IMG/VR virus record: IMGVR_UViG_2565956603_000007
Length of the DNA stretch: 4,485 nt
Reading direction: 5' to 3' (one strand)
Source of the DNA: a virus
Taxonomy: Duplodnaviria; Heunggongvirae; Uroviricota; Caudoviricetes
Shown here piece by piece: positions 1-4,485 of this stretch. Made by a program: the position numbers and the translations under genes. The notes below the pieces were generated by a model. It searched no databases. It saw only the letters and a program-made list of their open reading frames with translations, and was not told the origin of the DNA. Position 1 is the first letter of the stretch, and the number at the start of each line of letters is the position of its first letter.

Positions 1-624
1 CACATCGATGATTTCGGTGTATGACGACCACAGCGTCTTATTCTGCAGCTGGTCCGTGGTGCTGTCCGCCGTCTCCCTGACCATCCGGATGTTAAAGGGC
101 CGGGGAGGCAGATTATCCAGAATCACCGAGGCCAGGAACTGTGAGGTGGTCTTGCCGTTAATGGTGACGTCCTTTTCTGTCACCCAGTTACCGTTACGCT
201 GTAACTGAATCAGCAGGCGGACGGATGTCGGGTTACGGTCACCCTTTGACGTGGTCTGCACCAGTGACTGCACCCCGAAGGTAACCCGCAGGCGGTCAAT
301 GTTCGCGGACGTAATGGTGCGCGTCACCGGTTTTGCCTTCGTCACTTCCACGCCCAGTCCGGTTTCAGCTCCGGAGGACTCAAAGCCTTCCGGTGGTGTC
401 TGCTCCTGCTCCCCGGCACGCCAGACCGCGGTCACACCGTGTATCACGGGATTACCGTCCGTGTCCGTCAGCGGGGTTTTGTTCACCAGGATACTCTGCA
501 GTCCCTTCACCGGACCTTCTATCGGTCCCTCACCAATCGCATCAATCACACTCATCATCTGCGTGGATTTGAGATTATCCTTCGCCTCGCGCGGTGTGTG
601 CGCCTTACCGCCACCTTTACCCAC
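1..624 (-). CDS. J: Tail tip/host-specificity protein J, N-terminal 208 codons (partial; continues beyond window start). GTG start at 624..622.
   Basis: Hand translation of the minus strand from 624 gives MGKGGGKAHTPREAKDNLKSTQMMSVIDAIGEGPIEGPVKGLQSILVNKTPLTDTDGNPVIHGVTAVWRAGEQEQTPPEGFESSG..., closely matching my recollection of the lambda gpJ N-terminus (MGKGSSKGHTPREAKDNLKSTQLLSVID...). The frame is open with no stop from 624 to position 1 (all plus triplets in phase checked). A purine-rich Shine-Dalgarno (AGGAGAGGGGGAG, plus 628..640) lies immediately upstream. Position directly downstream of I matches lambda order. Confidence 0.88.
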   Translation of the reverse strand, partial: MGKGGGKAHTPREAKDNLKSTQMMSVIDAIGEGPIEGPVKGLQSILVNKTPLTDTDGNPVIHGVTAVWRAGEQEQTPPEGFESSGAETGLGVEVTKAKPVTRTITSANIDRLRVTFGVQSLVQTTSKGDRNPTSVRLLIQLQRNGNWVTEKDVTINGKTTSQFLASVILDNLPPRPFNIRMVRETADSTTDQLQNKTLWSSYTEIIDV

Positions 625-667
625 TCGCTCCCCCTCTCCTGTCTGATGTCTGAATCTGTTTATGCCC

Positions 668-699
668 AAAAAACAACAGGCACCCCGGAGGATGCCTGT
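668..699 (-). terminator. Predicted rho-independent terminator on the minus (tail-gene coding) strand, between I and J
   Basis: Minus-strand read: ACAGGCATCC-TCCG-GGGTGCCTGT (about 10-bp stem including one G-U pair, 4-nt loop) followed by TGTTTTTT. It ends about 44 nt upstream of the J GTG start. Confidence 0.55.
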
Positions 700-736
700 A
701 TCATGACTGAATAAAAATTCTGAATATCTTCACATT

Positions 737-764
737 TTCACAAACTGACTGTGGCGCGTATAAT
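737..764 (+). promoter_or_regulatory. Sigma70-like promoter on the plus strand: -35 TTCACA (737..742), 16-nt spacer, -10 TATAAT (759..764)
   Basis: Perfect consensus -10 hexamer TATAAT and a 5/6 match to TTGACA at 16-nt spacing, inside an AT-rich intergenic island. A second TTCACA copy sits 8 nt upstream (729..734). Predicted transcription start near 771. Confidence 0.45.
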
Positions 765-770
765 TTCTCT

Positions 771-868
771 GCGTTAATTTTTTTGTCGTGACATAAGAAT
801 AATTCCTTACACTTAATCTTCGTAACTCTCCCGCAGTTCCTGTCCGCGATCACTGCGGGATTTTTTTA
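771..868 (+). ncRNA. Candidate small non-coding RNA (about 95 nt) transcribed convergently to the tail genes, from predicted promoter to intrinsic terminator
   Basis: The promoter at 737..764 is followed by an approximately 95-nt segment with no ATG on the plus strand, ending in a strong intrinsic terminator (829..868). No ORF of meaningful size on either strand across 625..874. Confidence 0.3.
829..868 (+). terminator. Predicted rho-independent terminator on the plus strand
   Basis: TCCCGCAGT (829..837) pairs perfectly with ACTGCGGGA (852..860), a 9-bp GC-rich stem with a 14-nt loop, followed by TTTTTTT (861..867) then ATTCTTTTT. The T-tract is on the plus strand only, so it acts for rightward transcription. 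Confidence 0.6.
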
Positions 869-874
869 TTCTTT

Positions 875-1555
875 TTACCCCTGCCGCCCGATAACCACGA
901 CCTTTCCGCCCCCGCCTTCATCACGGGTGCTGATGTCCTGGGATATACGGCGGGAGCCAACCAGCATTTCCCCGTAAGGCACCGGCATCGGGTTCCCCTG
1001 GGCAATCATGTTATCCAGCGAGGAAAAGTACGTGTTCTGTCTGCCGTTATCCGTTGCGCGGTAATCCGGTGTTTTTGCCTTCGGGGCCAGCATCTGGGCC
1101 ACACCGCCCAGTATCATGCTGGCCCCCAGTGAAAACAGCATCGTGGTGGCAGAAAAACCGCCGGCACTCAGGGCTGTACCCCATAACGCCATCGAGGCAC
1201 CGGCAGTGAAGAAAGAGCCCACGATGGCTGCCGCCCCCAGCACAATCTGCAGTCCACCCTTTCCGGCCCCGGCCAGTCGCGGCACAATATGGATGACCGT
1301 TCCCTCACCCAGCTGTTCGTGAAGACGGGCGTACACCGCCTCCGGTGCCGTGTCATCACCGGCAATACGTATCTGGTACCAGCCTTCGTTCATCTGACGG
1401 CGAAAGCCCGGCATCTGCATCGACAGGGCGCGAATGGCTTCCGCTGCCGTGTTCACATACAGGCTGAGGCGGCGGCCAAATCGTTGTAAATCCCCGTAAA
1501 GGCGGATGCGTGCCAGTGGCGGTGACGCCAGACTGAATGCGTTCGTCGTTGCCAT
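875..1555 (-). CDS. I: Tail tip assembly protein I (gpI-like), 226 aa
   Basis: ORF-track protein MATTNAFSLASPPLARIRLYGDLQRFGRRL...; recognisable similarity to lambda gpI as I recall it (RICLYGDLQRFGRR, IHIVPR, LGAAAI.GSFFTAGA, NTYFSSLDNM.AQGN). TAA stop at 877..875. Shine-Dalgarno GGGAGAGG upstream of the ATG at 1555. Overlaps the 3' end of K by 103 nt, as in lambda. Confidence 0.92.
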   Translation of the reverse strand: MATTNAFSLASPPLARIRLYGDLQRFGRRLSLYVNTAAEAIRALSMQMPGFRRQMNEGWYQIRIAGDDTAPEAVYARLHEQLGEGTVIHIVPRLAGAGKGGLQIVLGAAAIVGSFFTAGASMALWGTALSAGGFSATTMLFSLGASMILGGVAQMLAPKAKTPDYRATDNGRQNTYFSSLDNMIAQGNPMPVPYGEMLVGSRRISQDISTRDEGGGGKVVVIGRQG

Positions 1556-2206: not shown

Positions 2207-2905
2207 TTACTGCGAAAGTTTATTAATGGAAAGGAAACCGCCAAAATTGCCGACATTCCTGCGCAGTTCACACCCGCGCATGCACTTGCTGCATCTGTCC
2301 TTACGGATATCCGTGGTGGGTTTATCGAACTCATCCGCCACAGCCCCGCCCGTGTAACCACACTCATCAGAGCGGTAGGTCCACATACAGGTGTTCGCCA
2401 GCATGATACGACCGGGAAACAGCGCCCCGTCCGTCTCGGTCGGTGTGGCCAGCACAAACGAGGCCGTCATGGCTGTCAGCTGCGACATCTGCTCCACCAC
2501 CCAGCGGTCACTCAGCTCCTGCTCCGGGTCCGCCTCCGGATTGCCCGCAACGAAATTCACCGCATCCAGAAAACGGGCATACACCCGGCGGCGGACCACC
2601 GTGGCCCCCACCAGACTCTGCAGGTCTTCTGCCATCCCGGTGACCAGACCGAACAGATTGGACACCGTCAGTGACGGGCGGGCACTGCTGCCCTTTCCGT
2701 TCATCTCAAAGTCACTGCCGTCAATCGGGTATGCCTGATACTTACGCCCCTGCCAGGTCACCGGCTCCCCTTTTTCATTCAGCTCATTACAGAAAAAATA
2801 CCGCTCACCGCCCTGTACCGTCAGGTCGATTTCCCAGAGTACCACCCGCGGTGACGGCTCTGATTTAACCGACTCGTTCAGACTTTCTTCGTGAATATCC
2901 TGCAT
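2207..2905 (-). CDS. L: Tail tip protein L (gpL-like), 232 aa
   Basis: ORF-track protein MQDIHEESLNESVKSEPSPRVVLWEIDLTVQGGERYFFCNELNEKGEPVTWQGR... ending ...NVGNFGGFLSINKLSQ, matching lambda gpL as I recall it. TAA stop at 2209..2207. Start ATG 2905..2903 overlaps the M stop by 1 nt (TGATG). Confidence 0.93.
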   Translation of the reverse strand: MQDIHEESLNESVKSEPSPRVVLWEIDLTVQGGERYFFCNELNEKGEPVTWQGRKYQAYPIDGSDFEMNGKGSSARPSLTVSNLFGLVTGMAEDLQSLVGATVVRRRVYARFLDAVNFVAGNPEADPEQELSDRWVVEQMSQLTAMTASFVLATPTETDGALFPGRIMLANTCMWTYRSDECGYTGGAVADEFDKPTTDIRKDRCSKCMRGCELRRNVGNFGGFLSINKLSQ

Positions 2906-3234
2906 CAGTTCACCACCTGCTTAAACTCCGCGCTGAACTCAACGCGCAACATCCCGACCCGCGCAGACCACCCGGCACAGGTCACCTTTATCTGCCGGTA
3001 TGCATAGGGTGGCTTCCACAAAAATGCCTTCCAGCCCCCGTGCTCTGCCAGGAACGCTTCCAGATGCCGGGCCTCCTCCCAGGTCACGGAAAGCGTCACC
3101 CTGTATGTTTTCAGGTCAGCATTCAGCCCTGCCGCCATACGCTGTGAGTACCCGTCACCAAAACGCACTTCACGCACCGATGGCTGCGAGTTCACCTCCA
3201 TATCCGGCTTCACTTTCCAGCGAAAGGTTTTCAT
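2905..3234 (-). CDS. M: Tail tip protein M (gpM-like), 109 aa
   Basis: ORF-track protein MKTFRWKVKPDMEVNSQPSVREVRFGDGYSQRMAAGLNADLKTYRVTLSV...RVGMLRVEFSAEFKQVVN, matching lambda gpM as I recall it. Start ATG overlaps the H stop as ATGA (plus 3231..3234 = tcat). Confidence 0.93.
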   Translation of the reverse strand: MKTFRWKVKPDMEVNSQPSVREVRFGDGYSQRMAAGLNADLKTYRVTLSVTWEEARHLEAFLAEHGGWKAFLWKPPYAYRQIKVTCAGWSARVGMLRVEFSAEFKQVVN

Positions 3235-4485
3235 CGACCGCTCCCTGATAACAGACCGCCATCACGCAACTGCAGCCGGAGTTCATCCTGTGCCCCCTTG
3301 CGGGCCATGTCATACACCGCCTTCATCAGCTGCGACCCCGCCTGTCCGTTGATACCGTCGTTCTGAATCACCACGTGATTGTTCTGATTAAAATTAATGC
3401 CTTCGGCCCGCCGCATCTGCGCCGGACTTCCGGCAGCACCCACATACCCCCCTTCCGCATAGCCCCGCATCAGGCGGTACAGGTTCCCGACACCAATCCG
3501 GCTGGTTGCCTCCTTCGTGAAGACAAACTCCCCGCGGTGGACAATCCCCGCTGGCTCATATTTGCCACCGGTTCCCGTAAATCCCCCGGTCGCGAAATGG
3601 AAGTTCGCCGCCGCAGCCTGAATGGCCGTCCCCGTGGAGGCAGACGCACCACCACCGAAAGCACCGCCAATGGCGCTGCCGATACGCCCGACTATCCCCA
3701 CCATCGCCTGCTTCAGAAAAATCTCTGTCAGCATGGACAGCACGGAACGGGTGAAGCTGCGCCAGTTCTGCTCACTGCCGGTCAGCATCGCCGCCATATT
3801 CTGTGCAATACCATCAAAGGTCTGCGTGGCAGCACTTTTAACCTGCGACATACTGTCCGTGGCACTCTCTTTCCACTCGCTCCAGCCGGACCTGAGGCCT
3901 GCCATCCAGTTCCCGCGAAGCAGGTCTTCAGCCGCCCAGGTCTTTTTCTGCTCTGACATGACGTTATTCAGCGCCAGCGGATTATCGCCATACTGTTCCT
4001 TCAGGCGCTGTTCTGTGGCTTCCCGTTCTGCCTGCCGGTCAGTCAGCCCCCGGCTTTTCGCATCAATGGCGGCCCGTTTTGCCCGTTGCTGCTGTGCGAA
4101 TTTATCCGCCTGCTGCGCCAGCGCGTTCAGGCGCTCCTGATACGTAACCTTGTCGCCAAGTGCAGCCAGCTGGCGTTTGTACTCCAGCGTCTCGTCTTTA
4201 TGCGCCAGCAGGGATTTCTCCTGTGCGGACAGCTGGCGACGTTGTGCCGCCTCCTCCAGTACCGCGAACTGACTTTCCGCCTTCCACAAATCCCGGCGCT
4301 GCTGGCTGATTTTCTCATTTGCTCCGGCATGCTTCTCCAACGTCCGGAGTTCAGCCTGAAGCGTCAGCAGGGCAGCATGAGCACTGTCTTCCTGACGATC
4401 GCCCGCAGACACCTTCACGCCGGACTGTTTCGGCTTTTTCAGCGTCGCTTCATAATCCTTTTTCGCCGCCGCCATCAGCGTGTTG
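3231..4485 (-). CDS. H: Tail tape measure protein H (gpH-like), C-terminal portion of at least 414 codons; 5' end lies beyond the window
   Basis: Long minus-strand ORF open to the window edge (track lists it from an internal Met at 4475). Sits immediately upstream of M with ATGA coupling, as lambda H does. Composition is typical of tape measure proteins: Ala/Gln/Arg/Glu-rich helical region followed by a Gly-rich hydrophobic segment (GSAIGGAFGGGASASTGTAIQAAAANFHFATGGFTGTGG). Confidence 0.85.
   Translation of the reverse strand, partial: NTLMAAAKKDYEATLKKPKQSGVKVSAGDRQEDSAHAALLTLQAELRTLEKHAGANEKISQQRRDLWKAESQFAVLEEAAQRRQLSAQEKSLLAHKDETLEYKRQLAALGDKVTYQERLNALAQQADKFAQQQRAKRAAIDAKSRGLTDRQAEREATEQRLKEQYGDNPLALNNVMSEQKKTWAAEDLLRGNWMAGLRSGWSEWKESATDSMSQVKSAATQTFDGIAQNMAAMLTGSEQNWRSFTRSVLSMLTEIFLKQAMVGIVGRIGSAIGGAFGGGASASTGTAIQAAAANFHFATGGFTGTGGKYEPAGIVHRGEFVFTKEATSRIGVGNLYRLMRGYAEGGYVGAAGSPAQMRRAEGINFNQNNHVVIQNDGINGQAGSQLMKAVYDMARKGAQDELRLQLRDGGLLSGSGR

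Follow-up and report, generated by a model that had tools for sequence, protein, structure and literature searches.

Organization of the I-J junction

The DNA analysed here, a stretch of 4,485 nucleotides to which we refer as the window, carries on its minus strand the end of a lambda-type tail operon in which H, M, L, K, I and J were all confirmed by Pfam. The genes I and J are separated by a gap of 250 nt. The region is AT-rich (34-44% GC over positions 640-880 as compared with 51-66% in the flanks) and holds features on both strands. Following the direction of tail gene transcription, the window contains:

3231-4475, minus strand: tape-measure gene H, C-terminal part (Pfam Tape_meas_lam_C)
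2905-3234, minus strand: M (Pfam Phage_min_tail)
2207-2905, minus strand: L (Pfam Phage_tail_L)
overlapping I as in lambda, minus strand: K (Pfam JAB plus NlpC/P60)
875..1555, minus strand: tail assembly gene I, the nearest same-strand gene upstream of the putative terminator (PF06805 Lambda_tail_I, E = 3e-16)
843-868, plus strand: predicted terminator of the PasB-like sRNA (terminator scan)
771..868, plus strand: predicted PasB-like, Hfq-dependent sRNA gene, antisense to the tail operon (homology and predicted 5' end)
737..764, plus strand: predicted sigma-70 promoter, TTCACA-16-TATAAT, 11 of 12 (consensus scan)
734..742, minus strand: weak extended -10-like element TGtGAAAAT, overlapping the pasB -35 (looser promoter scan)
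676..699, minus strand: putative terminator stem-loop ACAGGCAUCC-UCCG-GGGUGCCUGU, 10 bp with one U.G wobble (folding and conservation)
668..675, minus strand: U-tract UGUUUUUU, directly 3' of the stem (read from the sequence; U-rich in all variants)
625..667, minus strand: J leader with a Shine-Dalgarno-like GGAG/GGGGGAG at 628-639 (read directly from the sequence)
1..624, minus strand: tail-tip gene J, 5' part, with its GTG at 624..622 and leaving the window at the left edge (PF24801 FNIII-A_GpJ, E = 8e-43)

K and I share about 100 nt, read in two frames (1453-1555, minus strand), and the same arrangement is seen in lambda (14773-14875). The start of the annotated gpJ of E2348/69 aligns with the GTG of the window J; the homologous codon is ATG in E2348/69, in lambda and in the L141 type of locus described below.

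A hairpin followed by a U-rich tract precedes J

Read on the minus strand, the DNA between 699 and 676 is ACAGGCATCC-TCCG-GGGTGCCTGT and continues with TGTTTTTTGG from position 675. The stem is made of 10 pairs, six of which are G-C and one a U.G wobble, closed by a loop of 4 nt, and folding of the hairpin alone gave -18.2 kcal/mol. In a context of 51 nt the energy was -20.9 kcal/mol (z = -3.6) and none of 200 shuffles folded equally well; the hairpin was also present when the whole intergenic region was folded. The locus thus holds what is expected of an intrinsic terminator, a GC-rich stem-loop with a U-rich tract immediately 3' of it on the same strand. A preliminary description of this DNA had placed such a canonical motif at 668-699 of the coding strand between I and J, with the loop TCCG and a T-run, and our analysis supports it in these details, the identity of I, K, L, M, H and J being confirmed by Pfam. 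The distance of about 44 nt to the J start codon given there is also right, as 43 nt lie between the T-run and the GTG and 51 nt between the end of the stem and the same codon.

The element would act in one direction only. Past the stem the plus strand reads ATCATGAC and has no T-run, so that the element is unidirectional and belongs to the strand of the tail genes; a bidirectional terminator does not fit, since CAGTCATGAT precedes the stem on the tail strand and the plus strand is left without a T-tract. The U-tract itself is broken by a G or a C (UUGUUUUUU in the window, UUGUUUUCUGG in Sakai Sp15), and termination may therefore be partial.

To what extent such a motif arises by chance was estimated with dinucleotide shuffles of the whole 4,485-nt window, in which a comparable motif, defined as a hairpin of at least 9 bp with at least 5 G-C pairs plus a T-run, was found on either strand in 39 of 500 cases. 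A chance occurrence is thus moderately unlikely, at about 8% window-wide and far less for the 250-nt gap on the tail strand. The window sequence by itself is suggestive but not conclusive, and conservation is the stronger argument.

The hairpin is conserved next to mosaic flanks

Using a 24-nt anchor just outside the hairpin, we gathered 128 copies of the I-J region from IMG/VR and from retrieved genomes. The hairpin and the U-rich tract were kept in all 128 copies, which represent 14 sequence variants (variant U-tracts include UUGUUUUUG, UCGUUUUUGG and UUGUUUUCUGG), and 98.6% of the stem cells were paired over these 14 variants. One stem pair was compensatory, being C-G in 8 variants, U-A in 3, U.G in 1 (the window type) and C.A in 1. 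Six one-sided changes at three stem positions, carried by 5 of the 14 variants, result in G.U or U.G and preserve pairing only in the tail-strand RNA; a change that pairs only on the opposite strand was seen in 1 variant. Covariation is thin, as compensatory change was limited to a single pair in the window class and was not seen in the HK97 class, and the shuffle control was unremarkable, 22 of 500 shuffles reaching the observed pairing value. Selection on the stem at the level of RNA would be in keeping with these substitutions, which lend it modest support and fall short of proof. Between the hairpin and the start of J, at least four unrelated versions of the sequence were found, a mosaic beside which the hairpin stays constant.

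We then surveyed IMG/VR loci retrieved with three J queries for a coding-strand hairpin plus T-run in the 130 nt preceding the J start. Identical upstream sequences were counted once, and 130 nt of J coding sequence served as a control:

Window-like J: coding strand 19/21; opposite strand 0; J-coding control 0
HK97-like J: coding strand 62/64; opposite strand 7; J-coding control 0
Lambda-like J: coding strand 41/42; opposite strand 0; J-coding control 0

Altogether, 122 of 127 distinct lambdoid J-upstream regions (about 96%) have the hairpin, in at least five different hairpin sequences. Pre-J hairpins recur across the three J lineages independently of the adjoining inserts, on the coding strand between an I-like gene and J and no more than about 130 nt from the start of J. 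Of the stem cells in the HK97-like class, 98.9% were paired and two were unpaired, and all 9 one-sided changes gave G.U on the coding strand. A group of loci with a J 41-44% identical to that of Klebsiella phage KLB24 had the hairpin in 1 of 14 cases and lacked it in the other 13, which indicates that the pre-J element is not universal among siphophages.

Comparable hairpins are found in phages without the island

Lambda, N15, HK542, mEp390 and the more distant Klebsiella phage KLB24 and Serratia phage Bonzee have a GC hairpin and a T-run before their J homologue and no island. In N15 the sequence AGCCACC-TCCG-GGTGGCT followed by TTTTTTT lies between genes 20 and 21, and GenBank AF064539 labels this hairpin a 'putative rho-indep. 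transcription terminator' (stem_loop 15307-15330); an experimental test of it was not found in the literature. The N15 stem-loop resembles that of the window in being located between I-like and J-like genes on the coding strand and in consisting of a GC hairpin with a tetraloop and then a T-run, and the core CACC-TCCG-GGTG is common to the N15/HK542 hairpin and the window hairpin. It differs by its 7-bp stem of about -13 kcal/mol, its uninterrupted T7, its position 11 nt before the start codon and the lack of an adjoining sRNA island.

The I-J gap of lambda contains AAACCGCC-TGCG-GGCGGTTT and then TGTCATTT about 20 nt before the J ATG. This hairpin (about 15461-15484) shares with that of the window its place in the operon, its strand and the succession of hairpin and U-rich tail, whereas its stem AAACCGCC/GGCGGTTT is unrelated, its U-tract UGUCAUUU is weaker and the gap measures 60 nt as compared with 250 nt. 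In lambda all gaps of 40 nt or more on the late strand as far as orf-401 have a GC hairpin with a U-rich tail (D-E, E-FI, I-J, J-lom and lom-orf401), suggesting a late operon that is built for a terminator-resistant polymerase. None of these hairpins is annotated in NC_001416 over bases 1-23000, and literature searches for a described lambda I-J terminator returned nothing specific.

The AT-rich island is a variant of the PasB insert

PasB of EPEC E2348/69 is an Hfq-dependent RNA of 83 nt encoded at 1466343..1466261 of NC_011601 (Pearl Mizrahi et al. 2021, PMC8550237, Table S6). It sits between E2348C_1436 and E2348C_1437 and is convergent with E2348C_1436 (PMC8550237). We found that the E2348/69 pasB locus is the I-J gap of prophage PP6, syntenic with the window gap and 85% identical to it. 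PasB aligns to window positions 788-867, with its last ~25 nt identical and its 5' part diverged, and the PasB northern probe matches the window at 843-862 in 20 of 23 bases. The two copies share the same gap, the antisense orientation and a near-identical terminator and promoter; they differ in the 5' (seed) part, and the targets of the window sRNA may therefore differ from those of E2348/69 PasB. From the -10 element the 5' end of the window sRNA is predicted at 771, and homology with the PasB of 83 nt as annotated would put it at about 785-788. Under a stricter promoter criterion, such a promoter was present at the equivalent position in 32 of 74 distinct islands. Judged by this homology, the AT-rich island is a known antisense sRNA insert, a variant of PasB.

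Probably related RNAs have been detected in EHEC Sakai, where EcOnc22, EcOnc23 and EcOnc24 were described as Hfq-CRAC peaks of '~85nt' that are destabilised without hfq (Tree et al. 2014, PMC4104026). They fall in the I-J gaps of Sp15, Sp14 and Sp11, on the strand opposite the tail genes. The coordinates of Tree et al. are those of NC_002695.1, and when placed on NC_002695.2 the peaks seemed to hit the hairpin; we rejected this placement, as a version shift of ~128-140 nt, determined with AgvB, moves the peaks onto the PasB-like body. This shift was calibrated at 1.94 Mb and was assumed to be valid at 2.2-2.9 Mb. We infer that the PasB-like island of the window is probably the homologue of EcOnc22-24. 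Table S6 of PMC8550237 notes EHEC homologues for PasA and PasD and none for PasB. The portions of PMC8550237 and PMC4104026 that we consulted make no mention of a tail-strand terminator.

The island is widespread. It matched 150 phage records, mostly of Stx-converting phages, and was present in 1816 of 5426 complete E. coli genomes (about a third), at up to 11 places per genome. An Rfam scan of the whole window at E <= 1 gave zero matches, the sRNA included. AgvB and AsxR were considered as identities of the island sRNA and rejected, both being located at the pR' insertion site, and so was HnrS (EcOnc10-12), which had been suspected because it is multicopy and whose Sakai Sp9 copy lies between an Rz-like gene and terminase. 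In a one-genome-per-species collection the island anchor was found only in contigs of 546 and 460 nt (Asaia platycodi, Parendozoicomonas haliclonae), which are probably contamination by E. coli or phage DNA.

Hairpin and island are exchanged independently

The preliminary description had also seen the island as flanked by terminators that face outward in both directions. The geometry is as described, and the plus-strand terminator at 843-868 is the PasB-like sRNA's own, but the 668-699 hairpin does not hold up as a component of the island, since pre-J hairpins are found in island-free phages. Nor do hairpin and pasB behave as a cassette with its insulator: the hairpin class occurs without pasB, and pasB occurs with a different hairpin or with none.

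Among 80 loci with a J 97-100% identical to that of the window, the commonest type (L141, 42 of 80) retains pasB and its promoter and has, to the left of about position 712, a different J-proximal module with its own hairpin CCCCGGTATC-TGCT-GATACCGGGG plus TTTCTCTT. In the L141 locus itself (J 99% identical) this module is 190 nt long and carries the strong hairpin AAACCCCGGTATC-TGCT-GATACCGGGGTTT, and the exchange point at ~712 lies beside the hairpin. Locus L137 has an apparent insertion-sequence transposase gene, recognised by eye, immediately upstream of an L141-type pre-J hairpin. In the rarer L180 type a pasB-like gene and an antisense sodC are stacked between I and J and the pre-J hairpin is absent; the only basis for naming the Cu/Zn superoxide dismutase (sodC)-like gene was visual inspection of the N-terminal part of its translation. 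The I-J junction has the appearance of an insertion hot spot for antisense genes.

Search for a tail-strand promoter within the island

A consensus scan of the window found no minus-strand promoter. The looser scan gave the TGtGAAAAT at 734..742, which is the only candidate promoter for an RNA of about 60 nt ending at 668; the corresponding TGnGAAAAT was present in only 26 of the 74 distinct islands, and Sakai Sp15 is among those that lack it. The two scans thus gave no conserved promoter for an independent tail-strand sRNA upstream on the same strand within the island. The part of the EPEC RIL-seq table that was examined has no I-J entry under the name E2348C_1437. The alternative offered in the preliminary description, a short minus-strand RNA made within the island, accordingly found little support, given the lack of a consensus promoter and the location of the Hfq-CRAC peaks on the other strand.

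A minus-strand open reading frame of 50 aa with a GTG start (701-853) runs antisense to pasB and stops 1 nt before the hairpin, and some island variants have an ATG version of about 40 aa (MKINVKELF...). It is probably not a gene, as 11 of the 25 commonest variants retain only 18-19 aa of the frame.

Discussion

Our comparison points to the 668-699 element as an old intrinsic terminator in front of J, beside which pasB was later inserted in antisense orientation, and which would stop RNA polymerase that is not modified by Q and let the Q-modified polymerase pass. We consider this joint reading probable. The pasB-like gene would have entered between the stop codon of I and the terminator. On this reading, the PasB locus runs from the I stop codon through three antisense features (terminator, body and promoter of PasB) to the ancestral pre-J terminator and then to the leader and coding sequence of J.

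During lytic growth, Q-modified polymerase would make the late transcript from pR' and pass the hairpin, so that J is made, and polymerase without Q would come to a halt at 668-675. The latter might have read through into the prophage from outside, have started spuriously within the tail genes, or have set out from the AT-rich sRNA island of a lysogen. Stopping it at the element would keep J and the genes behind it dependent on Q and would cut short the transcription antisense to pasB. Intrinsic terminators do not stop Q-modified polymerase, and the element should accordingly have no effect on it in lytic growth; the Q gene lies outside the window. The preliminary description had suggested read-through by a Q-antiterminated late transcript, and by analogy with lambda, which has an equivalent hairpin in the same spot, this would be the natural explanation and a reasonable one. 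In a secondary role compatible with this, the hairpin may shield upstream tail mRNAs, once processed or terminated, at their 3' ends. Among lambda late genes, differences in expression are reportedly due mainly to translation initiation, and this makes strong attenuation by the element less likely in lytic growth. In lysogens of EPEC both I and J are expressed near background (baseMean 4.8 and 15.0), and no drop is visible between them at counts that are too low to decide.

Two known systems are useful for comparison. In lambdoid phages, as documented for Stx phages, Q-modified polymerase starting from pR' passes intrinsic terminators (PMC7547250), and tR' resembles the window element as an intrinsic terminator of the late unit at which ordinary polymerase should stop and the Q-modified form should continue (PMC7547250). 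It differs in being placed directly after pR' as a regulated decision point whose product in Stx phages is the sRNA StxS, whereas the window element lies deep in the late operon. In Tn916 the terminator T1 and the antiterminator canT insulate an integrated mobile element, as was shown experimentally (PMC11658703). The concept is alike, with a terminator that blocks outside transcription and a processive antiterminator encoded by the element that overrides it when the element is active, but Tn916 is another element in another host, its antitermination works through a cis-acting RNA and not through a Q protein, and insulation by the window element is only inferred. We also considered promoter-terminator coupling (bioRxiv 10.64898/2026.08.19.745784) and set it aside: from the part of that preprint consulted we took it to concern adjacent same-strand units, and by eye there is no convincing J promoter in the U-tract.

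If the hairpin had arrived together with PasB, as one of a pair of outward-facing insulators of the inserted cassette, its place at the edge of the AT-rich stretch (34-44% GC) would be accounted for, as would the fact that it stays with the pasB promoter side in window-, Sp9-, Sp15- and E2348-type islands despite their differing J leaders. This origin is very improbable: phages free of the island have the hairpin in the equivalent place, that of N15/HK542 contains the CACC-TCCG-GGTG core of the window hairpin, the pasB of L141 stands beside another hairpin that travels with the J side, and the pasB-like gene of L180 has no hairpin beside it. Sequence comparison thus places the 668-699 element as an ordinary predicted pre-J terminator of lambda-like E. 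coli phages which is not brought by the PasB island. AT-rich islands often start transcription in both directions, and it could be argued that the hairpin ends a short island-born tail-strand RNA with an Hfq-binding 3' end, either of ~60 nt starting from the element at 742..734 or a longer anti-PasB RNA. The extended -10-like element is about 34 nt upstream of the hairpin and the predicted RNA, an AU-rich 5' part plus a terminator, has the usual shape of an sRNA. We give this little chance of being correct, since the consensus scan yields no minus-strand promoter, the weak element is present in 26 of 74 islands and the terminator in all of them, lambda, N15 and HK97-type phages have the terminator without any island, the published Hfq-CRAC peaks in I-J gaps are on the opposite strand and the I-J region is unnamed in the examined part of the EPEC RIL-seq table. 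A palindrome that arose by chance or acts in the DNA, for example by binding a protein, and has no function at the RNA level could draw on the ~8% of shuffled windows with a comparable motif and on the weak covariation statistics. It is hardly credible in view of the conservation of the hairpin in all 128 copies with both flanks mosaic, and of the one-sided changes, which counted per variant are G.U on the coding strand by 6 to 1 in the window class and 9 to 0 in the HK97 class; that unrelated sequences adopt the same hairpin-plus-T-run shape at the same position argues against a sequence-specific DNA site.

The main effect of the hairpin could be post-transcriptional, that of an intercistronic stem-loop blocking 3'-to-5' exonucleases, marking a processing boundary and setting the half-lives of the upstream and J mRNAs separately, with termination incidental. 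A late transcript that is expected to be terminator-resistant would leave a post-transcriptional role in lytic growth, in lambda the major capsid gene E and gene J each lie between two similar hairpins in the manner of polycistronic stabilisers, and conservation applies to the stem and not to the loop and flanks. We nevertheless regard this as unlikely to be the principal function, because a T-run follows the stem in every lineage, even behind unrelated hairpins, where a pure stabiliser needs none, and because the motif is almost never on the opposite strand. The presence of the T-run in all lineages favours real termination, and the roles of stabiliser and terminator are not exclusive. A more elaborate proposal, which we hold to be decidedly unlikely, takes the element as a checkpoint before J that makes J, lom, the side tail fibres and the effector cargo strictly dependent on Q, with non-Q transcripts ending as an Hfq-binding anti-PasB RNA (the 3' UTR of I) that would titrate PasB. 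Were this the case, the RNA made in prophages with pasB would be complementary to the whole of PasB, and a host-directed sRNA would be titrated whenever late transcription is leaky or induced.

Taken as a terminator that Q-modified polymerase would pass, the element is routine in itself, a terminator-like hairpin within the late operon of a phage, for which the N15 record already has a putative example. The occurrence of a pre-J terminator in ~96% of distinct lambdoid I-J junctions, in no fewer than five hairpin sequences, suggests that selection maintains terminators inside an operon which only antiterminated polymerase reads productively. Terminators retained in this way would fit the idea that the structural genes of the prophage are kept silent and that antisense inserts are insulated.
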